From assembly GCA_000146465.1 (NCBI GenBank), contig CP001947.1: a stretch of 64,000 bases of DNA; one strand, 5' to 3'. Of this stretch, positions 11,385 through 64,000 are shown one piece after another. The notes under the pieces are model-generated. The model saw only the letters and a list, made by a program, of their open reading frames with translations, did not search any database and was not told the DNA's origin. Position 1 is the first letter of the stretch. Each line of letters starts with the position of its first letter. The translations under genes and the position numbers were made by a program.

Positions 11385-11455
11385 TGCATCATCCGAGAAT
11401 CGAACTCGGGCCAGCCAGATGGCAACCGGCTATTATACCACTAAACTAATGATGC
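11385..11455 (-). tRNA. tRNA-Gly (anticodon GCC)
   Basis: The 71-nt minus-strand sequence GCATCAT..ATGATGCA folds as a cloverleaf. The 7-bp acceptor stem is perfect. The anticodon stem GCCGG/CTGGC carries the loop TTGCCAT. The T arm is CCGAG-TTCGATT-CTCGG. A T4 run follows the 3' end directly, consistent with a Pol III terminator. Confidence 0.95.
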
Positions 11456-51805: not shown

Positions 51806-52786
51806 TCAGAAGTCGACATCTATCCTGAACGAATCATTTCCATTATCTATCCCCACAAATGCCTTCTGGTACTGTGACTCTCTCTTGTCGAAGAAGTTTG
51901 TCTTTCCAACCAAAGAGATGTTCTCCATAAAATCAAACGGGTTGGGAGTATGGTATATCTTCTCCTCCTCAAGATTCTCTAGGAGAGTATCGGCTACAAA
52001 CTCTATATATTTGCACATCAACTGGCAGTTCATCCCTATAAGATCCACTGGAAGACTTTCACTCAGAAACCTCTTTTCAACTTCGACTGCATCCATCACC
52101 ACCTCCTTTACTCGCTTGCACTTCTGTTTCAGGTAACGTCTATGCAAAAGGCATGCAAACTCACAGTGCAGACCCTCGTCCCTGCTTATCAGCTCGTTCG
52201 AAAACGTTAGTCCAGGCATCAGCCCTCTCTTCTTCAGCCAGAATATAGATGCAAATGACCCAGAAAAGAATATACCCTCCACACAGGCAAACGCCACAAG
52301 CCTTGTTGCAAAGTCAGAATTCTTATCCTCAATCCATTTTATTGCCCAATCGGCCTTGTCTTTCACAGAGGGGATAGTTTTGACTGCATTAAAAAGGAAC
52401 TTCTTCTGTTCTCCGTCCCTTACATACGTGTCAATCAGCAGGCTGTACATCTCACTGTGGATGTTCTCAATTGCAATCTGGAACCCATAGAATAGCTTTG
52501 CTTCAAGCATCTTGACCTCGCTGGAGAACCGCTCCACCAGATTCAGATTGACAATTCCATCAGACGCCGCAAAGAATGCAAGAACATTGGAGATAAAGTG
52601 CTTCTCCTTTGGATTTAACTTCTTCCAATCTTCAATGTCTTTGTCGAGGAGAACCTCTTCCACAGTCCAGAACGAGCTTTCAGCCTTCTTGTACATCCTC
52701 CATACATCTTCGTGTTGTATGGGAAAGAGTACAAACCTCTCTTCTTTAGGATCCAATAGTGGCTCAATTTTTTCTTCGCAACTCAT
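51806..52786 (-). CDS. RNR2: ribonucleotide reductase small (R2) subunit
   Basis: 326 aa with R2 iron/tyrosyl-radical motifs: [48 protein letters not shown] and [10 protein letters not shown]. Confidence 0.95.
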
Positions 52787-53064
52787 AAGCTATTTGACAG
52801 AATCTGCTTATATACTTTTTTTTGGAGGGAATATCTCCCTCAAAATAATAATCATCTAAATTCAATTTTACAATCCTTGCTCGATCTAATTTCGTCGATC
52901 CCCTCTTGGCATTTGGCTTCACCCACCTAAGCCATGGCGGGAGAGCGGCCCCAGAACCTAAGCTAGGAATGACTATTTATTGTAAATAATGTTCCCTATA
53001 AAAGGAACACTGGTATTATTTATATTTACTGCACCCTATATATTATAACTATTATTGAATGTTT

Positions 53065-53717
53065 TTACTCAAGATCAATAAATTCCTTTCTCATGAATGG
53101 TAATATACGTTTTCTCGCATTTGCAAACCAATTATCTATTTGAGACAATTTTAGTCCTGTTTCTTTAGAAAGTATTTTTTTTCTATTTTAGTTGGATAAG
53201 GATTAGAAAGATGCTCCTTTAGCCATCTTCTTAGCATTTTGGACACTTCTCTTGGAAAATTAGCTCTCCTAGAATGAGGACTACTTCCGAGCCAACCATT
53301 AGTTGATGAATTATTTCTTATATAACTCTCATACCTGTATAAATCCCTCTCGTTCATTACATTCATCATATCTATGATGTTGTCCATTTTTCTTTGGAGT
53401 TTGGTGCATTCTGAATCAAATATAGAAACAAGATTTTTTTCAAATAGTAATGCATACTTAAATTTCTCAGCAATTAGAAACAAAGCTAGCTTGTGTGATA
53501 AGTTATTCGGAAAAAAATGTGTATTGGAGCATGTTTCGTAATTTTTCCGAATTTTTAATAGGACTTCCTTCAAATGATGTTCATTTATCATTCCTTGAAA
53601 ATATTGTTCTTTTGCGATTAATATTTGGCCAATATGCTCCACCATATCTAGAAAACTATCGGCATTTAAAACAAAAATTGATAAACTCGTAATTAACGTT
53701 ATAAAAATAATATCCAT
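53065..53717 (-). CDS. TALE-class homeobox protein with its frame broken by a 1-nt shift in an A8 run (frame A 53717..53175, then -1 frame 53175..53065)
   Basis: Track ORF 53151..53717 ends ...[39 protein letters not shown], which covers helices 1-2 with the TALE 3-aa loop. The -1 frame continues [36 protein letters not shown], which covers helix 3. The join is at the minus-strand A8 run, 53182..53175. Confidence 0.8.
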
Positions 53718-53797
53718 ATCACTTCAGAAGACTATTATAACTTGTCAAACTCATCAAGACAAGATAAAGTATAAAATAAAAAGATATTTTACAAAAT

Positions 53798-55276
53798 ATG
53801 AATTTAGGATGGCTACTGAAGATTCCAATGCGAAAACATTCAAACAGGAAAATAATTGTATATGAAAATAGCATGGCTTCGTTTTACTCTAGGACGTTTG
53901 AAATAATTGAAGAGCATATTTCTACCATATCCAATAATGAACATCATAGAGATGGATTAGTAGAGTATATAGAAATGTTATCATATTTTCAAATCTCTAA
54001 TGAAGATCATGAGAAAAAAGAAGAAATTAATAGACAAAGGCAAAGCTTACTTAAGAAATTTAGATCCCTAACCTTAATTAGTATTTCAAAAGTAGAAAAA
54101 GACAATAGGAAAATATTGAAATCTTATCATGGAGTATTACATCTTTTAGATTTGATTGGTTTTGGTGTAAATCCTTATGAAATGGTTTTAAAAAAATGGT
54201 TAAACACCAATTGTATGATAATTAGTGATGTAGAAAGACATGCCATAAGAGGAAATTTCGAAAAAGTGATCGAAGCATATCCCTATTTAAACGAGGCTAT
54301 TAATAATTATTTAAACTTAAGGAAGACGTCAGGAAATGAATACAGGAAATTATTTGCGTCTTGGAAGATCAAATATTTTAAAATTATTCCCAATAATTTA
54401 AAGGAAATTCTTTTTCATAATATTAACGGGGATGGTATTGACTGGATTGATCATATTTGCTATAAATCGTTTTGTATGAACACACAAAGGAATGGGATCG
54501 ATCTTATAAATAGGGAAGATGAAATCGGAATGATATTAACACATAATTATGATGCACTAATAGAACGTTCTAAAGGATGGATTAGACTAGTATTATTGTT
54601 CGTTTGCCCTCATACAAAATTTGATTTATTTCCAAGAGCATTTGAATCTATCGGGAAATTCCTATATTTATCAGATTATCGCTTATCTTTGAGATTTTTT
54701 TCGTACACAGAGAAACTAATCTTATACTTTAATCACTTTTCCTGTAAGTTTTCTAAAAGTCTTTCGGATTTAGAATTCTTGGTTGAGTATTCCAAAAAAA
54801 ATAATATTAATGGAAATTCTTTGTTAAAAGAGTACTGCCAAAATCTTCTTTCTAATCAAGAGTATTATAATCTTTTTTATGTTATATCTAAATATGAGCT
54901 CTGCGATATAAACATAAATTCCGAGTTTATAGAATTCTGTATTAGAAATACAACAATACTAACTGAAAACTTCACTAAAACATCGTATGGAATTTTTATT
55001 GGAAACTTTAGGAGATTTCTTAGTGGAATAAAAGTTGGTGAAGGTGAAATTATAGCATTGATAAATTCAGATTATTTTTCAGCTCTAGATAGTAGAACAT
55101 TTGAAATAATACTAGAGAACAGATGCATTACTGTGAACATGCTTTATAAGCTTTTAGAAGGAATGTTAAATGTGGAAAGAAAAGGGAAGTCTAATCCCAT
55201 ATTGAAAAGCAAAAAAGCTTTAGTTCTCAATAAGTTAGCGGAATCTACAGGTCTCGGGAAGGACATATCAATTTAA
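53798..55276 (+). CDS. hypothetical protein (492 aa) encoded in the AT-rich island
   Basis: An uninterrupted 1.5-kb ATG ORF in about 30% GC DNA is very unlikely by chance, because stop codons are AT-rich. N/I/K/L-rich. No domain recognised and no homeodomain. Confidence 0.6.
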   Translation: MNLGWLLKIPMRKHSNRKIIVYENSMASFYSRTFEIIEEHISTISNNEHHRDGLVEYIEMLSYFQISNEDHEKKEEINRQRQSLLKKFRSLTLISISKVEKDNRKILKSYHGVLHLLDLIGFGVNPYEMVLKKWLNTNCMIISDVERHAIRGNFEKVIEAYPYLNEAINNYLNLRKTSGNEYRKLFASWKIKYFKIIPNNLKEILFHNINGDGIDWIDHICYKSFCMNTQRNGIDLINREDEIGMILTHNYDALIERSKGWIRLVLLFVCPHTKFDLFPRAFESIGKFLYLSDYRLSLRFFSYTEKLILYFNHFSCKFSKSLSDLEFLVEYSKKNNINGNSLLKEYCQNLLSNQEYYNLFYVISKYELCDININSEFIEFCIRNTTILTENFTKTSYGIFIGNFRRFLSGIKVGEGEIIALINSDYFSALDSRTFEIILENRCITVNMLYKLLEGMLNVERKGKSNPILKSKKALVLNKLAESTGLGKDISI

Positions 55277-55614
55277 ACTATTAAACTGGTAGTATCAATT
55301 TAAATTACAAATACTTTGGAAATATCTCCTTCTGTTTATTAACTTTTCAAGGGATTGCCGTTTTTTAAAACAAACATATAAGAGTGATGATACATAACTT
55401 CTTTTTGTATTCTTAAGTAAATTCATGTAAAATTTTAGAATAAAATGTCCGAAGATATTTGAGTTCCTATAGCAATAGCAGAAACACACCCTATCTCAAT
55501 TCATTATACTTCCTGGGAATCCATACTTTAAAGATTTAAAGTAAAACTAAAAAGGAAGGGGGTGTTTATTTCAATAGATTAAAATCGAAATATTGTATTT
55601 TTAAACTAAGAGAT

Positions 55615-58440
55615 TTAATGAGCAAACACTCTGGAGACATATACCGGCCCGAGTATCTCATCAATAGAGAGGTCTTCTTTTGCTATCTCGTTGACAGCCT
55701 CAACAACTTTCTCTTCATAGCTCAGGTCGATTATACCCCTTAGATACTTGTTCCATATGTCGGTGCTGTAGATTTCAAAGTTTTTCTTCCTTTCCCTGAA
55801 GAACGAGATGACTCCGTTTCGGAACTCTTCAAACTGATCTTCGCTCATCTCTCTGAAGTATTCGTCCAGGTCTTTTACAAACTTCCTTATCCTCTTTTCA
55901 AGGAAGTCTACATCCTTCTCGCTTTGCACTATGAATTTGATGTACTGCTCGTCATCTAGATTCAGAACCCCAGACCCAACTACATACCCAAGCTCTTCCT
56001 TTGTCCGCAGATCATCGAAGAACATCGCTTTGCATGACTGTTGTACAAAGTGGGCTATGGCTGCATCCTTGTGGTTCCTGCATTTTCCGCAATAGTAGTT
56101 CAAGGAACATGCATTGTTCACCTTGTCGCTTGTTTTCACATCACATCTGTATTTTCCATCAAGAAGATCTTTCTTTACATAATCGTATACTTCCTCCTGT
56201 TTCGAAAGAATATTTTCAAATATCTTCTCGGCATCTTGATACTCGATGTTCCCAATCACAAACATTTCCAAGAAGAACTTTCGGCTCATCTTGAATTCCG
56301 TGTCTACAGAGCTCAGCTTCTCCATCAGCTCCTCTGCCATCAAATGTCCGGGAATCCTCATGCACTTCAGCCCTTCATTGCATCGCTTGTGAGGGCTTTC
56401 GTTTCTCTTTGTCTCAAACTCATTCCAAATCCGCTCCTTCACAAGGTTCCGCCGTGACTGGTTGGGCTCTTCAAACAGAATGTCGAAAAACTGCCGGGAG
56501 ATCTCAACACTCATGTGGTTAAAGCATTCTATCCGAATCTCCACCCCATAGTGCTCGACACGAACATCGATGTTCATTCCTGTTCCGTGAAGATATCCAT
56601 CGTGCCTTCTAAAGAATTGGCTCTTGGCATTTCTGAGCAGAAATATCAAGTTAATCATGTTCTCATTGATTTGGTCCATTCGAAGAAGACATCCTATAAA
56701 GACCTTTGGAACCTTGTAGGTATCGTTAAACAGGTAGTTGATTTTTCCTCCAGAAACCTCCTTTGAAATAATTTCTGAAGGGGCCTCGATTTTTATCATC
56801 TCTCCTTCCTTCCACTCAACTGCCTTCTCCAGTGAGTCTTCAGAGACCACTTTGTCTTTTTCATTGTACTTCGGAGAATACACCTCTTCTGTTTTAAACT
56901 CCCCCTTTAAATCCTTTTGCCCTTGAAGTTCGAGCCATTTGGAGAAATCCGTCATCTTCTGGACAATCTTCTTGACTTCTTCTTTCTTTCCTTTAGAGGA
57001 CTTCTGGGGAAGGACATTTGGGAACACCTTTTCTTCTTTCTTTGGTAAGTCCAACTCAAATATCTGGTCTCCCACATTGTATCTCACCCCATATATCTCC
57101 TCGCGCATGTCAAACATCCCTGTTCCCTTTGCAACATGGAACACAAGCCACTTTGGGAAGTTCATCATCTTTTCCACAATCCCCTTGATCTCGTTCTTGT
57201 CAAATTTCTCAAAACAGTGTTCGTTATCAAGAACATTCTCAACCGGGAAAAACTGCATGTTTCTAGAGATCTTCTGTGCCTGGTACATAGGCTCGTCACT
57301 CTCCTCGTACTTGAACACATATCTCGATCTCTTTTGGATCTCTTCATACTCATCAGAAGAGATGGGGATGTCTTTGAGATACCTTACAAGTTCTAAAAGA
57401 ACTCTTTCAGGTCTTTTGTTTCCCTCGGAAGACAGATGCATTGTTATTATTATCAGAGAATAGTCTGTGTAGTGGCACATCTCATACTCAACCTGCAGAA
57501 CGAGCCCTTTGTCCTTAACCCTACATGCAAACCCCTTTGTATCGTCCCGAAGAAACATATTCATTACATACTCGTAAGGATTGTTCTTGAAAATCTTGTA
57601 CCCCGACTCAACAGTCATTGTAACAACAATCGATCTTGTATCTGCAATAGGCTCCACCCTGATCCATCGGTTGGTGTATTCAGAGTCAAACACAGTCCAT
57701 TCCTTGTCTGCTTCAAGTTCTATGTTTCCACTGCTCTTCTTCTCCTCGGTCCCCTTTGGAACCCCCTCAAACATCTTCAACATCTCCTTTAGCTCCTCCA
57801 GACCTTTGTTTCCACAAATCACTGTACACATTTTATCGCAGGAATACTTCTGTTTCCAGAACTCTGCCATCTCTTCCCATATCCCTTCTTTTCGAAGTGT
57901 GTCGTAGTTTCCTGTGCTGAACATAGATATCGGCAGTTCCTTCTTGCAGCATCTTGAAATCATCCTCCAGATCCTCCAGTCATCAACATTCAGTCCGTTA
58001 CAGAACTCGGAGTTCACAGCCGACACCTCTCTCTCCACCGAGTTTTTCTTCAGCAGTGGTGTCTTGAAGAAGTCTGCAAGTCGGTCCACCCCTTCTTCAA
58101 AAGCCTCAGGAGCAATATCGAAGTAATACACAGTAACCTCTCCATAGGTGGAGGCATTGTATTCCCCGTTGTTCTTTGAAAGGAATTTGCCAAAATCCTC
58201 TTCATCAGGGTATTTCTCAGTCCCCATAAACAGCATATGCTCAAGGAAATGTGCAAGACCTTGAGTAGATACCGGGTTATCAAACGATCCAACCTTGACA
58301 GAGACTGCACAGCTGCACTTGTCCAGTGAAGGATCCGACATAATCAGCCCTCGCATCCCGTTGGGCATCTCGACATACTCATATTCCATCGAGTCGGTGA
58401 GACTCTTGTGAATCTTTTTGGCAACTTTAAGACAATTCAT
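55615..58440 (-). CDS. insulinase-family (M16A) zinc metalloprotease, insulin-degrading-enzyme/STE23-like
   Basis: Inverted zinc motif GLAHFLEHMLFMGTEKYP (HxxEH). Four-domain length of about 940 aa. The N-terminus IHKSLTDSMEYEYVEMPNGMRGLIMSDP parallels the IDE start. Start chosen at the ATG at 58440 (MNCLKVAKK); the track start at 58599 adds 53 residues unlike the family. Confidence 0.85.
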   Translation of the reverse strand: MNCLKVAKKIHKSLTDSMEYEYVEMPNGMRGLIMSDPSLDKCSCAVSVKVGSFDNPVSTQGLAHFLEHMLFMGTEKYPDEEDFGKFLSKNNGEYNASTYGEVTVYYFDIAPEAFEEGVDRLADFFKTPLLKKNSVEREVSAVNSEFCNGLNVDDWRIWRMISRCCKKELPISMFSTGNYDTLRKEGIWEEMAEFWKQKYSCDKMCTVICGNKGLEELKEMLKMFEGVPKGTEEKKSSGNIELEADKEWTVFDSEYTNRWIRVEPIADTRSIVVTMTVESGYKIFKNNPYEYVMNMFLRDDTKGFACRVKDKGLVLQVEYEMCHYTDYSLIIITMHLSSEGNKRPERVLLELVRYLKDIPISSDEYEEIQKRSRYVFKYEESDEPMYQAQKISRNMQFFPVENVLDNEHCFEKFDKNEIKGIVEKMMNFPKWLVFHVAKGTGMFDMREEIYGVRYNVGDQIFELDLPKKEEKVFPNVLPQKSSKGKKEEVKKIVQKMTDFSKWLELQGQKDLKGEFKTEEVYSPKYNEKDKVVSEDSLEKAVEWKEGEMIKIEAPSEIISKEVSGGKINYLFNDTYKVPKVFIGCLLRMDQINENMINLIFLLRNAKSQFFRRHDGYLHGTGMNIDVRVEHYGVEIRIECFNHMSVEISRQFFDILFEEPNQSRRNLVKERIWNEFETKRNESPHKRCNEGLKCMRIPGHLMAEELMEKLSSVDTEFKMSRKFFLEMFVIGNIEYQDAEKIFENILSKQEEVYDYVKKDLLDGKYRCDVKTSDKVNNACSLNYYCGKCRNHKDAAIAHFVQQSCKAMFFDDLRTKEELGYVVGSGVLNLDDEQYIKFIVQSEKDVDFLEKRIRKFVKDLDEYFREMSEDQFEEFRNGVISFFRERKKNFEIYSTDIWNKYLRGIIDLSYEEKVVEAVNEIAKEDLSIDEILGPVYVSRVFAH

Positions 58441-59962: not shown

Positions 59963-62299
59963 ATGGGGATCAAGGATACGTTTGGAATGGAAGGGATAAG
60001 AAGACTCTTTGAAAGAGGTTCGTTTGTGGAAAATCCCCTGGGCAAGTCATTGATTGTGAAGCATCTTTCGTCTCTGAATTCCAAGAGGCAGATCAAAGGG
60101 GCAAGGAGTCTGGTGAGCAGGATGCAGCGTGGAGAAGATCTCTTTGAGCTCTGTAATGATGTCATCAAGGCGATGGACACAAGAGATCCCGAGCTCAAGA
60201 GAATGCTCAACCTGTATCTGGTGAAGTATGTGCAAGGATGGCCTGCAAAGCAACTGATATGTATCAACACCGTACTGAAGGATCTTGGAGACGTAAATAG
60301 CGAAATGCGACATTGTGCAATTCAAGATAGTGGGCTGCTAGGAGACGGAGCAGTGATCAAAAACTATGTTAATCCTCTCAAGGAGCATGGGGTTAGTGCG
60401 CTGCCTGAGACAAGAAGGAAGGTAGCAGACTCATTGAGGAACTATTTCAGGAAAGATCCCCGTTTGTTCCATGACGAAGACCTTTGCGATCTACTGAGAG
60501 ACTTGGTGTTTGACGAGGATGCAGGTGTGTGTGCATCTGCACTAAATAGCGTTCAAGCCATAGAGAAGGAGACAAGAGTCCTTTCTACCAAAGACATCTA
60601 TATCCTCTTTGGAAAGGCCATTAAGACAGGAAACAGGGAAATCCTTGGAAGTCTTCTGGAAGTGATGAATAACAGAGCAGAGGACTTCCTTGATGCTGCT
60701 CCATTGGTTCCATTGTTGAGATCGTGTAGCCTTCGGATATTCCGTCAGGCATCTGATCTGGCCATTTCTATCGATCCCTCTTACAGGCAAATTGTGTTTG
60801 ATCACCTCAAAGGGTTTCTTAATTCAAAGGACGAGGAGTTGTATCTTGTACTTGACTATGCCGAGTCTCTTCTTGATCATGTGAAGTACGACAATTCATG
60901 CTTTGCCATCTACCACAGCGACAGGAAATACAATAAGATAAAGAAGCTTAAGATTCTATTCAAAAGGCTGGATAGCATCTCTGTGTCGGAAATAAAGAAC
61001 CAATGCAGAGATGAAGAACTTCTTGGAGTGATTTTGAAGGAGTCTCTTATTGCAGACTATCTTATAGAGGAGCCGTTCAAATACATACGCAAGGCAGATG
61101 AAATAATAAGAGTTCTGTACAGTGAAGATGCTATTTCAGAAAAATGGTCGGGACTGATTGAAAAATTCTTGATGAGTGCGAGGGAAGTGCAGGAAAGGCA
61201 GAAGTATATCTATCTCTGTGGGAGATATGTCCACGAGATTCCTTCAGAAGTTATAAGAATCCAAAGTCTGTACATTCCTTCTCTAGTCAACGAGACGGCC
61301 AGGTTTTATCTTAGCCTCCATAGAAGAGGAGTGGTAAATCTGGAAGAGACCCTAGGGCACCTCCGTCTGGTACAGAAGAGCCCAAAGGACAGAATCCGAG
61401 CAGTGATCAATGAACTGAAGACCCGGGGAATAGGAGTGTTTTCAGCATTTTGTGACATCAAAAAGCGGGATCTGAACAGCACTAAAGCCTGTAGATCTGT
61501 TGGGATAAAGTATGAGGAAAAGACCACTTCGATACTCGATGGCAAGCCATACTATGGACTAAGTGAAGATGGATTTCTAAGGGAAAATTCTGGAGAAGCA
61601 TTGGAGAAGTTCCGCGAAGAGGAGAAATCTCTACGTGAAGAATGCTCTTCTCTTGAAAGAGGAGAGACACAAACAACCGAGCTCTCTTCTGCAGGAGAGA
61701 GTAGTCCATTTCCAGGAAATGGCTCACAATGTCCAGCTCTGTTCTTGGGCAAGGAAGACGAGGAAAATGTTTGGCTGAGGTTTGCTGAATCTCATCGTCC
61801 TGTTGAAGGTAAGAGGGCCAAAGAGAAGGAATCCACCAGGCTGATAGACACCCTTGGGCTAAAAGGGATTCTTGCCATTGCTGGTGAAGAGGTTATACTT
61901 CAAGTGGATGTGCTAGAAAGTCCATTGGTTATTTATTACAGGTGTAAGGGGCGACTCAACAGTATCAAAATAGACGGCGAAGGGACTTTTTCTCTTTTCA
62001 CAATAGGTCTTCCAGTAATCAACTCGGAGTTCAGCCTAACAATAGGAAAGTCCAACTACGAAATCTACCTGGGAATCAGAAGCTTGATGAATCCATTTGA
62101 GTGCTCGAAGGATGAGTTTGAAAGGAAATTCCATGAGCTCAGAGACCACATACTCCTAGGGGAAATCGACACTGGGAAGGCATATGCCGTCGACAACCAT
62201 CGGTTCTCATTTTCTGTCCTTGGCTCAAAATTCTACGGAAAGCATCTCAATGGACAGGCAATCCTCAAAGGCCCGAGGAAGCTGTTGGGACTCTTTTAA
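59963..62299 (+). CDS. adaptor-protein complex large subunit, beta-adaptin-like
   Basis: The N-terminal block QIKGARSLVSRMQRGEDLFELCNDVIKAMDTRDPELKRMLNLYLVKYVQGWPAKQLICINTVLKDLGDVNSEMRHCAI is collinear with the beta-adaptin consensus KKvIa.Mt.GkDvs.LF.dV..cm.T.dlElKKLvYLYl.nYa...P..ail.vNt..KD..d.NplIRalAi. First ATG at 59963. Confidence 0.65.
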   Translation: MGIKDTFGMEGIRRLFERGSFVENPLGKSLIVKHLSSLNSKRQIKGARSLVSRMQRGEDLFELCNDVIKAMDTRDPELKRMLNLYLVKYVQGWPAKQLICINTVLKDLGDVNSEMRHCAIQDSGLLGDGAVIKNYVNPLKEHGVSALPETRRKVADSLRNYFRKDPRLFHDEDLCDLLRDLVFDEDAGVCASALNSVQAIEKETRVLSTKDIYILFGKAIKTGNREILGSLLEVMNNRAEDFLDAAPLVPLLRSCSLRIFRQASDLAISIDPSYRQIVFDHLKGFLNSKDEELYLVLDYAESLLDHVKYDNSCFAIYHSDRKYNKIKKLKILFKRLDSISVSEIKNQCRDEELLGVILKESLIADYLIEEPFKYIRKADEIIRVLYSEDAISEKWSGLIEKFLMSAREVQERQKYIYLCGRYVHEIPSEVIRIQSLYIPSLVNETARFYLSLHRRGVVNLEETLGHLRLVQKSPKDRIRAVINELKTRGIGVFSAFCDIKKRDLNSTKACRSVGIKYEEKTTSILDGKPYYGLSEDGFLRENSGEALEKFREEEKSLREECSSLERGETQTTELSSAGESSPFPGNGSQCPALFLGKEDEENVWLRFAESHRPVEGKRAKEKESTRLIDTLGLKGILAIAGEEVILQVDVLESPLVIYYRCKGRLNSIKIDGEGTFSLFTIGLPVINSEFSLTIGKSNYEIYLGIRSLMNPFECSKDEFERKFHELRDHILLGEIDTGKAYAVDNHRFSFSVLGSKFYGKHLNGQAILKGPRKLLGLF

Positions 62300-62406
62300 A
62301 TATATCGAATAAACAGGTAAGAGATAAAGAATTTATTCCCAGTAAATCCAGGTTCTGTCTTAGTGGCATTGGAAATGCCCTTCCACCCGATACCACGTGG
62401 AGGTGC

Positions 62407-62485
62407 AGAGATACATCAGGCACGAAGTCAGATTTTGCTACATCGTCAGTTTTCAGTCTGGGGCGGCAAATATCATCACTCTCCG
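62407..62485 (-). ncRNA. candidate box C/D snoRNA (63-78 nt)
   Basis: The minus strand reads CGGAG-A-GUGAUGA (C box, 62479..62473), then UAUUUGCCGCCCCAGA, then CUGA (D', 62456..62453), AAA, CUGACGA (C'-like), UGUAGCAAAAU, CUGA (62431..62428) and CUUCG. The flanks CGGAG and CUUCG can pair. The first guide is complementary to the conserved LSU rRNA motif CUGGGGCGGCA. Confidence 0.4.
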
Positions 62486-62518
62486 GGGGTAACAAATACA
62501 AATGTTTTATATAGACAA

Positions 62519-64000
62519 CTATTTATTACCAAGCTTACCCATCACTGATCTTAACGTTTTGCCATGGCGTTTATTTGTTCCTCCCTTTCTCAAGTACTCG
62601 TGGCAGAGGTCTCGAAGCTCCTTGCTTCTTCCCAGAACCTTGGCCATCGAGTCGGAATCAAGATATGCAATCATCTCGGTTGCCGGTGCCCCAATCATCT
62701 CAAAGCACTTTATCACACCCTCCACCATCTCCTCCTGCTTCCATATGTTTCTTCTAACTACCCTGGATAGAAACGAAACAACAAAGTTCTTCAGATTGGG
62801 AAATTTCACCAAGGTTTGGAGTAGAGTCCTCACTATCAGCACAGGCAGCTCCTTCTCCAGGGTTGTTAGTGTAAACAGAAAGTCGCTCTCTCCAAACTTC
62901 GAGGATTTGAAGCAGAGATCGAGAATCCGGATGGCTTTTGAGACTTCTGGAATTCTGTGTACAAAGATCAGAAGTTCCGAACACTCCATAATTCTCAGAA
63001 ATACATTTAGAGACTCACTGTCAACAACATAGTCGGGAATATACTTGTACACGTCAGACTTCTCCAAATACGGTAGGAGGGCATACATAAAACGGCTGTC
63101 CTCGAGGTAATTATCTAACAGATATATTCGGAGCTGGCCCTTGACCGCTCTCCTTCGAAGGATCGTTTGTATCAGACTTTCCTTCTTCGGCCCATCCTCC
63201 AAAGACTTGACAAGATCAACCACTACCGTATCTTCCTTCTCTTTCAGAAGGTCAACAAAGCTATTCATCCCCTCCTGGGACTCGACCGACTCCAGAGTAA
63301 GAGCCAAGGCCTGGTCGTTGGACTTGGAGATCTCAATCAGCTCCTGATCGCTTAGCCGGAAGTAGGAGGCATAGTCCTTAAGAGCCCCATAATTCTCCTT
63401 GAAAACCTCCAAGAGGCCTTCTCTTCCTATCGCTACCTTTTCCTCGGAAATCATTTCCACAATCTCCTTAACATGTGTCTCCCTTTCTCTAATCACATAG
63501 CTCAGCACATCCACTGACTCGTCCGTTATCTTCGGTATAATCCTCTTCACATCGAGCTCGACAAGGCATTTTATAACATCCAGCTTAAAGTACTGCTTGT
63601 TCTCGAGAATTATATCAACCATCGACTTGTAGACCTCTTTGTTCAGGAGATATGCATACAGGAAAAACGAAAGGCTGTATCTCTCGTTTTTTCTTATAAA
63701 CATCAAGGTCTCTAGTGAGTCTTCAACACTCAGCGTCCTTACAATTCTTGAAATCCCCTTGTCTACCGCTCCCGGGTCTCTTATCTTCCCAATAAGGCTA
63801 AAGGCCTCAGAAACAGGGCTTGGGAACTCCTCTTCCTTCTTCTCGTGGAAATATGTCTGGACCGTATTCTCAATCTCAATGTTGCTGCTCTTCACAAGCG
63901 TCTCAAAAACCAAATCAATAAGAAATCTAAAGGGATCAAACTCCTTCCTTGCCTCCTCTCCTCCCCTTCTTTCCCGTGTCTCTGTAAAGTCAAACAGCTT
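62519..64000 (-). CDS. PTA1: symplekin/PTA1-like mRNA 3'-end processing scaffold; N-terminus lies beyond the window
   Basis: The minus-strand frame is open from base 64000 (KLFDFTETRERRGGEEARKEF...); the track start at 63913 is only a TTG. The C-terminal block VVRRNIWKQEEMVEGVIKCFEMIGAPATEMIAYLDSDSMAKVL resembles the symplekin C-terminal domain (kqvW....lW.GFikC......S...ll.LP...l). Confidence 0.5.
   Translation of the reverse strand, partial: KLFDFTETRERRGGEEARKEFDPFRFLIDLVFETLVKSSNIEIENTVQTYFHEKKEEEFPSPVSEAFSLIGKIRDPGAVDKGISRIVRTLSVEDSLETLMFIRKNERYSLSFFLYAYLLNKEVYKSMVDIILENKQYFKLDVIKCLVELDVKRIIPKITDESVDVLSYVIRERETHVKEIVEMISEEKVAIGREGLLEVFKENYGALKDYASYFRLSDQELIEISKSNDQALALTLESVESQEGMNSFVDLLKEKEDTVVVDLVKSLEDGPKKESLIQTILRRRAVKGQLRIYLLDNYLEDSRFMYALLPYLEKSDVYKYIPDYVVDSESLNVFLRIMECSELLIFVHRIPEVSKAIRILDLCFKSSKFGESDFLFTLTTLEKELPVLIVRTLLQTLVKFPNLKNFVVSFLSRVVRRNIWKQEEMVEGVIKCFEMIGAPATEMIAYLDSDSMAKVLGRSKELRDLCHEYLRKGGTNKRHGKTLRSVMGKLGNK

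Follow-up and report, generated by a model that had tools for sequence, protein, structure and literature searches.

What fills the spacer between the convergent symplekin and adaptin genes of the microsporidian Encephalitozoon intestinalis, and what might its product do? The spacer (62300-62518, 219 bp) lies in a 64,000-nucleotide stretch of chromosome VI (GenBank assembly GCA_000146465.1, contig CP001947.1), and the whole of this stretch is called the window here. The minus strand of the spacer probably carries one compact gene, in which a TATA box and a CCC motif precede a box C/D small nucleolar RNA (snoRNA) of 63-65 nt and a 71-nt hepatitis delta virus (HDV)-like ribozyme that would cut the 3′ end of the snoRNA. 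The sequence, its conservation, its covariation and the geometry of the snoRNA-ribozyme junction come from this analysis, and the expression, rapid amplification of cDNA ends (RACE) and target data for E. cuniculi come from the literature. Self-cleavage, and its role in forming the snoRNA 3′ end and/or in terminating transcription, are proposed on the basis of sequence comparison. The first-pass annotation of the window had described a 219-bp convergent spacer, which the coordinates of the open reading frames (ORFs) reproduce, and had noticed the snoRNA in it, but it overlooked the adjoining ribozyme that fills the rest of the spacer.

The comparison covers E. intestinalis and seven orthologous symplekin loci from Encephalitozoon/Ordospora-type genomes, and all counts over eight species or loci refer to this set. 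The seven loci are those of E. cuniculi (L001), E. hellem (L002), Ordospora colligata (L008), three relatives from Logan assemblies (L003, L005 and L006) and a relative from a JGI metagenome (L007), with symplekin identities to E. intestinalis from 73% down to 50%. The promoter motifs and the parts of the snoRNA are as follows.

62505..62513, minus strand: TATA box TATATAAAA, just downstream of the symplekin stop; its ATA.A core is invariant in eight species
62485..62489, minus strand: CCCCC motif, probably marking the start of transcription or lying close to it; CCC unchanged throughout the eight-species alignment
62422..62486, minus strand: box C/D snoRNA, U31/SNORD31/snR67 orthologue, from the Rfam SNORD31 match; 63-nt core at 62485..62423
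62481..62485, minus strand: 5′ half of the terminal stem, CGGAG, pairing with CUUCG at 62427..62423
62473..62479, minus strand: box C, GUGAUGA; RUGAUGA in 8/8 species
62457..62472, minus strand: D′ guide UAUUUGCCGCCCCAGA, 16 nt; UUGCCGCCCCAG is invariant in 8/8 species
62453..62456, minus strand: box D′, CUGA; invariant in 8/8 species
62443..62449, minus strand: box C′, CUGACGA; UGACGA is shared by E. intestinalis and E. cuniculi, and the remaining six species have UGAUGA
62432..62442, minus strand: second spacer UGUAGCAAAAU, 11 nt, upstream of box D (also quoted as AUUUUGCUACA); GCAA alone is conserved across the eight species
62428..62431, minus strand: box D, CUGA; invariant in 8/8 species
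62423..62427, minus strand: 3′ half of the terminal stem, CUUCG, pairing with CGGAG

The minus strand reads CCCCC-GGAG-a-GUGAUGA-UAUUUGCCGCCCCAGA-CUGA-aaa-CUGACGA-UGUAGCAAAAU-CUGA-CUUCG-u. On this reading, the boxes, spacings and coordinates of the first-pass annotation are all exact, and its box C/D snoRNA with a 63-nt model is supported by the box architecture, the conservation and the SNORD31 matches. A script was made to require box C, box D′, box C′ (at most 1 mismatch), box D and a terminal stem of 4 bp or more; on the two strands of the 64-kb window it picks out this unit alone, and in 200 first-order Markov randomisations it picks out none. The unit is located directly downstream of symplekin in all seven relatives. 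Conservation with compensatory changes had been proposed as a check in sister species: the four boxes and the guide are indeed kept in all seven, and the guide UUGCCGCCCCAG stays unchanged in the eight species while the neighbouring spacer diverges. The compensatory part of that check gives less. The 5-bp terminal stem is paired in 97.5% of its cells over the eight species, with the outer C-G pair changed to U-A in two of them, but the covariation of the stem alone is not significant because the stem is mostly invariant.

The family of the snoRNA is indicated by the Rfam models. SNORD31 (U31, RF00089) is the best match at relaxed thresholds, extending over 62486..62422 with 26 bits (E 9e-4), and the plant family snoU31b (RF01285) also matches at relaxed thresholds and reaches 62408. 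The guide CCGCCCCAG.CUGA is common to the SNORD31 and snoU31b alignments, and in the cmscan alignment the SNORD31 consensus CCGCCCCAGUCUGA is located opposite CCGCCCCAGACUGA in E. intestinalis. Furthermore, SNORD31 is the top Rfam family in 7/7 orthologous loci, at 28-35.5 bits, so that the search with Rfam C/D models suggested in the first-pass annotation returns the same family in all eight loci, though under the gathering score. Judged by the identity of the guide, the snoRNA is the orthologue of U31/SNORD31/snR67. SNORD31, snoU31b and snR67 share with it the D′ guide core CCGCCCCAG followed by CUGA, a P-loop G as the target and a length of ~65-70 nt. Yeast snR67 additionally has a second guide, for Um2724; here, the second spacer retains GCAA only. 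Human U31 is intron-encoded, whereas the U31 gene of this locus has a promoter of its own and ends in a ribozyme.

The D′ guide is complementary to CUGGGGCGG, and in E. coli 23S ribosomal RNA (rRNA) CUGGGGCGG is situated at 2248-2256 (NC_000913 rrlH), in the motif C2248-U-G-G-G-G-C-G-G2256. Since CUGGGGCGG occupies these positions, the second G of CUGGGG corresponds to G2251. C62461, the fifth nucleotide upstream of box D′, stands opposite the equivalent of this residue, and the +5 rule supports the G of the large-subunit (LSU) P-loop as the predicted target of the snoRNA. Such a P-loop target and +5 assignment had already been put forward in the first-pass annotation, and it agrees with the site of yeast snR67, which guides Gm2619, the equivalent of E. 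coli Gm2251 and a modification close to the peptidyl-transferase centre that belongs to the few conserved universally (PMC11121408). The snoRNA target exists in the LSU rRNA of E. cuniculi (PMC5499648), and the extended match UCUGGGGCGGCAAA rests on the published figure of that target (PMC5499648). Under the snoRNA reading, UCUGGGGCGGCA would be expected in Encephalitozoon LSU rRNA.

The snoRNA itself is already known and not new, because a homologue of U31/snR67 has been published for Encephalitozoon. Belkorchia et al. (2017, DNA Res 24:251) reported three C/D snoRNAs, homologues of U31/snR67, U38/snR61 and U40-U46/snR63, in E. cuniculi, E. intestinalis, E. hellem and E. romaleae, all with LSU rRNA targets (PMC5499648). 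All E. cuniculi non-coding RNAs (ncRNAs) were validated by 5′ and 3′ RACE; a TATA-like box and a CCC/GGG motif are found at the start of every Encephalitozoon ncRNA gene, and a CCC-like motif is located near the transcription start site of all E. cuniculi ncRNAs (PMC5499648). The published U31/snR67 and the present unit agree in genus, snoRNA class, assignment to human and yeast orthologues, TATA-like box with CCC, and LSU-only target, and the two are almost certainly the same gene. In the eight species, the ATA.A core lies ~20 nt upstream of the CCC motif. Because the published ncRNA promoter motifs are conserved at the snoRNA, it is an independent transcription unit and not part of the symplekin 3′ untranslated region (UTR).

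Immediately downstream of the snoRNA, the same strand can be folded into an HDV-like ribozyme, with the following parts.

62351..62421, minus strand: predicted HDV-like self-cleaving ribozyme, 71 nt, from relaxed Rfam matches, the eight-species alignment A2, covariation and the covariance model R1
between U62422 and G62421, minus strand: predicted scissile bond, from the HDV-like fold
62415..62421, minus strand: 5′ strand of P1, GCCUGAU, pairing with AUCGGGU at 62391..62385; G1.U wobble beside the cleavage site
J1/2, minus strand: GUAUC in E. intestinalis
62406..62409, minus strand: 5′ strand of P2, UCUG, pairing with CAGA at 62357..62354; pseudoknot, with 4 compensatory pairs
extra C between P2 and P3, minus strand: invariant, column 18 of A2
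62392..62404, minus strand: P3, ACC/GGU, closing L3, UCCACGU; invariant in eight species
C62400 and C62399 (L3) with G62384 and G62383 (the GG after P1), minus strand: P1.1; invariant in eight species
62365..62379, minus strand: P4 hairpin, GGCAUU-UCC-AAUGCC; variable in length and sequence, with 2 compensatory pairs
62358..62364, minus strand: J4/2, ACUAAGA, with the putative catalytic C62363; AC.AAGA is invariant in eight species

The relaxed Rfam scan matches HDV-F-prausnitzii (RF02682) at 62421..62350 on the minus strand (25 bits, E 0.011) and drz-agam-1 (RF01787), also on the minus strand (22 bits, E 0.033). The HDV-like matches are confined to that strand and recur in E. hellem and in L005. 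No general HDV-like model of Rfam gives a match at the locus; RF02682 and RF01787 are narrow, lineage-specific models. As in the consensus structures of these two families, the predicted fold is a nested double pseudoknot with a 7-bp P1 that starts from an R-Y pair, an ACC/GGU P3, an L3 of the form UCCNCGU, a 2-bp P1.1, a P4 hairpin, C-N-A-A in J4/2 and a predicted cut 5′ of +1. The invariant core, consisting of P3, L3, P1.1, GGAAG and AC.AAGA, agrees with the drz-agam-1 consensus ACC-UCCuCGu-GGU, and J4/2 lines up with CUAA in J4/2 of the HDV-like consensus sequences from Rfam. In the modelled fold, all the parts that define an HDV-like ribozyme are present, namely P1, P1.1, P2, P3, P4 and the C of J4/2, and by its position C62363 would play the catalytic role. 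The pair of P1 at the cleavage site is G.U in five species, A-U in two and G-C in one. The A1-U instead of G1.U occurs in E. hellem (L002:4877) and in L003 (L003:4879), and the G1-C in E. cuniculi.

The fold is drawable in 8/8 genomes, and the element occupies the same place in all seven relatives. In the alignment A2, 95.7% of the 184 cells are paired in the pseudoknotted fold, and changes on both sides, compensating each other, are seen in 11 of its 23 pairs. The observed pairing, number of covarying pairs and covariation score are each reached in 0 of 500 column shuffles, and sliding the partners by 1-3 columns leaves only 30-46% paired. P1 is the most instructive helix: 7/7 bp are paired in 8/8 species, the 8 sequences use 7 different helices, and 5/7 pairs have compensatory changes, as in GCCUGAU/AUCGGGU, GUCCGAU/AUUGGGC, GCUCAGC/GCUGGGU and GCUCAAC/GUUGAGU. 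P2 covaries as well (for example, GCUCCA/UGGAGC versus GUUCUA/UAGAAC), and so does P4; both are independently recovered by RNAalifold, which considers nested helices without pseudoknots. The fold is strand-specific, because 16 G.U cells favour the snoRNA strand and the paired fraction falls to 88.0% on the opposite strand. Simultaneously, the model R1, built from A2, scores 77-90 bits in 8/8 loci, and nothing else in the window or in the orthologous loci exceeds 10.4 bits.

The junction between the two RNAs has a fixed geometry. In 8/8 loci, the SNORD31 match ends 0-2 nt before the ribozyme +1, and in 8/8 species the predicted cleavage site lies 6-8 nt after box D and 1-3 nt past the terminal stem. 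The distance holds in spite of variation in J1/2, in L4 and in the sequence downstream. U occupies position -1 in 7/8 species, and in E. cuniculi the predicted cut falls after ...CUGACUUCAGU, at position 4874 of L001. In the E. intestinalis sequence, there is no T-run or other recognisable terminator after box D.

From these features, a course of events can be proposed for the TATA/CCC-promoted gene on the minus strand. Transcription would start from the CCC motif, and the 5′ end of the snoRNA would be the primary 5′ end. With fibrillarin and the core C/D proteins, the snoRNA would pair its D′ guide with the P-loop sequence UCUGGGGCGGCAAA and direct 2′-O-methylation of the second G of CUGGGG, the equivalent of E. 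coli G2251 and yeast G2619. Transcription would run on into the ribozyme, which would fold co-transcriptionally into the nested double pseudoknot and cut between U62422 and G62421, 5′ of its own first nucleotide. The snoRNA, protected as a ribonucleoprotein particle (snoRNP), would thereby be freed with a tail of 1-3 nt and a 2′,3′-cyclic phosphate, to be trimmed later. The downstream fragment with its 5′-OH would be discarded, and antisense transcription running into the convergent adaptin gene would be limited.

Several observations weigh against a cleaving ribozyme of this kind, or against parts of the identification on which it builds. The SNORD31 scores of the eight loci (26-35.5 bits) are below the gathering score of 40, and the HDV-like scores are 22-28.5 bits compared with gathering scores of 37-44 (22 against 37 for RF01787 and 25-28.5 against 44 for RF02682). 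The canonical G1.U is replaced by A1-U in E. hellem and L003, and P2 of E. intestinalis has 4 bp followed by C.A and U.C mismatches, compared with 6-7 bp in the relatives; owing to this short P2, the E. intestinalis ribozyme may be slower than its orthologues. RNAalifold prefers a competing helix through L3/P1.1, without compensatory changes. The z-score of the minimum free energy (MFE) is not significant (-0.09 on the minus and +0.25 on the plus strand) and so gives no support from folding; it is uninformative because the ribozyme fold is a pseudoknot. In the published 3′ RACE, poly(U) tails were added, a reaction that requires a 3′-OH (PMC5499648), so at least part of the mature snoRNA must be without a cyclic phosphate; later trimming of the cyclic phosphate is consistent with the success of this RACE. 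In addition, each locus has a single ribozyme copy, in ~190 kb searched with R1, and the spacers downstream of symplekin in two further loci, L004 and L024, contain neither snoRNA nor ribozyme with the search filters off.

Part of this evidence would also fit a real snoRNA followed by a non-catalytic RNA element that merely resembles the HDV fold, such as a structural roadblock or a module for folding, assembly or protein binding. The sub-threshold Rfam scores, the predicted nature of the cleavage, the short P2 of E. intestinalis and the A at +1 in two species are compatible with such an element. However, exactly the catalytic parts are invariant (the CC/GG of P1.1, the 3-bp P3, the 7-nt L3 and the C of J4/2 followed by NAA), the helices around them covary freely, the core agrees with the drz-agam-1 consensus, and a fixed 6-8 nt from box D to +1 is sensible only if +1 matters; a non-catalytic element is thus rather unlikely. 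The ribozyme might also be active and yet selected for termination, insulating adaptin, with the snoRNA 3′ end produced by exonucleolytic trimming to the snoRNP. Here, the convergent genes, which are in this arrangement in all seven ribozyme-bearing relatives, the ~50 bp between the ribozyme end and the adaptin stop, and the absence of the module from L004, where a co-oriented gene takes the place of adaptin, speak for a terminator. A pure terminator, however, need not abut the snoRNA within 0-2 nt in 8/8 species, and termination is compatible with 3′-end formation, since a cut 1-3 nt past the stem does both; as an exclusive role, termination is considered unlikely.

Two further readings concern the strand and the extent of the snoRNA. 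The block 62351-62421 is found 52-122 nt past the adaptin stop codon, and most of its helices also form on the complement (88% of the cells), so that it could be taken for a plus-strand element in the adaptin 3′ UTR or for an adaptin terminator. Yet the 16 G.U cells become A.C mismatches on that strand, the HDV-like Rfam matches are on the minus strand only, the asymmetric single-stranded motifs fit the HDV-like core in the minus orientation only, and the AATAAA of adaptin comes right after its stop, upstream of the block. A plus-strand origin is rejected on the G.U asymmetry and the strand-specific matches and is highly improbable. The first-pass annotation had offered a 78-nt snoRNA with the CUGA at 62419..62416 as box D. 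This CUGA exists in E. intestinalis, and the snoU31b match reaches 62408, but the motif is not conserved, being absent in E. cuniculi (GUCCGAU), in L006 (GCUCAGC) and in L007 and Ordospora (GCUCAAC). It sits within the covarying helix P1 of the ribozyme, whereas the proximal CUGA and the CUUC stem are invariant, and the 78-nt model was therefore abandoned, retaining practically no probability.

The fused snoRNA-ribozyme gene thus remains the favoured reading, and a wider version of it can be formulated. The HDV-like ribozyme could be the sole device that forms the snoRNA 3′ end and stops read-through, in place of protein signals, and perhaps it serves other microsporidian ncRNAs in the same way; this extension is plausible but somewhat doubtful. 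One may speculate that microsporidia do without the usual machinery for snoRNA 3′ ends. A literature search for microsporidia together with Nrd1/Nab3 returned nothing relevant.

From the HDV-like consensus structures in Rfam, the E. intestinalis element differs by an additional C that separates P2 from P3 and by a GA that separates J4/2 from P2. Its context is also different: a single syntenic copy is joined to a snoRNA gene, and the genome is a minimal eukaryotic one, poor in transposons. Microsporidia are relatives of the fungi. In this regard, the fungal HDV variants described by Li and Breaker (2017) are informative, because P2 and P3 are separated in them by an additional nucleotide (usually C), and their self-cleavage has been shown (PMC5640933). 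The extra C of the E. intestinalis ribozyme, which breaks the classical descriptor, is thus shared with active ribozymes (PMC5640933). In the fungal variants, the cleavage site typically has a C-G pair and P4 an E-loop, and the associated genes are highly diverse (PMC5640933), whereas the present loci have G.U, A-U or G-C at that site, a P4 drawn as a plain hairpin and a fixed association with a snoRNA.

In terms of function, the closest analogue is the theta ribozyme, an HDV-like ribozyme with its cleavage site at the 3′ ends of phage transfer RNAs (tRNAs), proposed to replace host RNases and to save genome space (Kienbeck et al. 2024; PMC10879173). Both would act in cis, with an HDV-like cut at the point where a small structured ncRNA has its 3′ end. 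Theta ribozymes are without P4, occur in Caudoviricetes phages and flank tRNAs, whereas the element described here has a P4, is eukaryotic and nuclear, and flanks a snoRNA. The E. intestinalis ribozyme is not a member of the theta family but, by analogy, would work like one.

No relevant report linking microsporidia or Encephalitozoon to HDV-like or self-cleaving ribozymes turned up in searches of the searchable literature, and a search of the text of Belkorchia et al. (2017) for ribozyme, HDV and self-cleavage found no mention of them (PMC5499648). A conserved HDV-like ribozyme at the 3′ end of a snoRNA is apparently unreported.

The snoRNA half of the gene is textbook biology, as it guides a universally conserved rRNA methylation that is kept even in a ~2.3 Mb genome. 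Few roles are known for HDV-like ribozymes, namely in viral replication, in the processing of retrotransposons and, as a recent addition, in trimming phage tRNA 3′ ends. If the proposed reading is true, the locus would add a new biological role for these ribozymes in a cellular eukaryotic genome. It would also provide a clean natural case of an RNA enzyme in place of protein machinery in the eukaryotic nucleus, in genomes known for shedding RNA-processing factors. In addition, R1 is a covariance model usable for scanning all microsporidian genomes, and the A1-U and G1-C variation beside the scissile bond offers natural variants of kinetic interest.

The two loci without the module come from more distant relatives and differ from the others in their surroundings. 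In L004 (4791-5090), symplekin is ~53% identical and adaptin is replaced by a co-oriented Ham1-like gene. In L024 (2242-2287; P0010, from the symplekin profile search), symplekin is 30% identical, the sequence is AT-rich and the synteny with adaptin is broken. The snoRNA-ribozyme module has been moved or is absent in both, and a U31 gene is expected elsewhere in these genomes because their symplekin loci are without the snoRNA guide.

Outside the microsporidia, a metagenome scan with the ribozyme core pattern returned 14 loci, none with a snoRNA. In five JAAGOD01 contigs there is a multi-copy ribozyme that is convincingly HDV-like, has the same core subtype and is scored at 32-38 bits by R1; the other loci are weak or chance matches. 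The five copies are located as follows.

L009:1841-1907, minus strand: JAAGOD01 ribozyme
L014:7780-7846, minus strand: JAAGOD01 ribozyme
L016:193-259, plus strand: JAAGOD01 ribozyme
L011:1-67, plus strand: JAAGOD01 ribozyme
L010:13519-13583, minus strand: JAAGOD01 ribozyme

Their sequence is GUCGGGC...ACAGUCA-C-ACC-UCCCCGU-GGU-GCCCGAU-GGAAG...ACCAAGA-UGGCUGU. The copies are frequently situated at contig ends, and they have upstream sequence in common, with no snoRNA upstream. The ribozyme subtype is thus not unique to microsporidia, because the same core exists in these unrelated contigs; among the loci scanned, its fusion to a snoRNA is seen in microsporidia only. In L016, an ORF for a pogo/Tc5-type transposase lies nearby on the other strand, which is uninformative on the role of the ribozyme.

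As to the locus itself, the minus-strand ORF that ends at 62519 is the symplekin Eint_060700 of E. intestinalis ATCC 50506 (100% identity), and the plus-strand ORF that ends at 62299 encodes the convergent Adaptin_N protein. Along the minus strand, the spacer contains in order the symplekin stop overlapping AAUAAA, the TATA box, the CCC motif, the snoRNA, the ribozyme and ~50 nt with the AAUAAA of adaptin on the other strand. The 219 bp are fully occupied, and the whole spacer is conserved because the snoRNA and ribozyme gene fills it. In the window-wide Rfam scan at gathering thresholds, the sole match is a tRNA at 11385-11455 on the minus strand (61 bits); as nothing but this tRNA passes, the snoRNA is missed by routine annotation. 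Neither the window nor the orthologous loci contain rDNA.

Some minor features of the surrounding sequence were also recorded. The AAUAAA that overlaps the symplekin stop codon (GGUAAUAAAUAG) is at 62519-62530 on the minus strand, and that of adaptin directly follows the adaptin stop at ~62305-62312 on the plus strand. A further AAUAAA is found on the snoRNA strand at ~62333-62338 (minus), about 15-20 nt past the ribozyme; it is present in the four Encephalitozoon and absent from the Ordospora-type loci. The G+C fraction is 0.334 at 52001-56000, compared with 0.41-0.445 elsewhere in the window.

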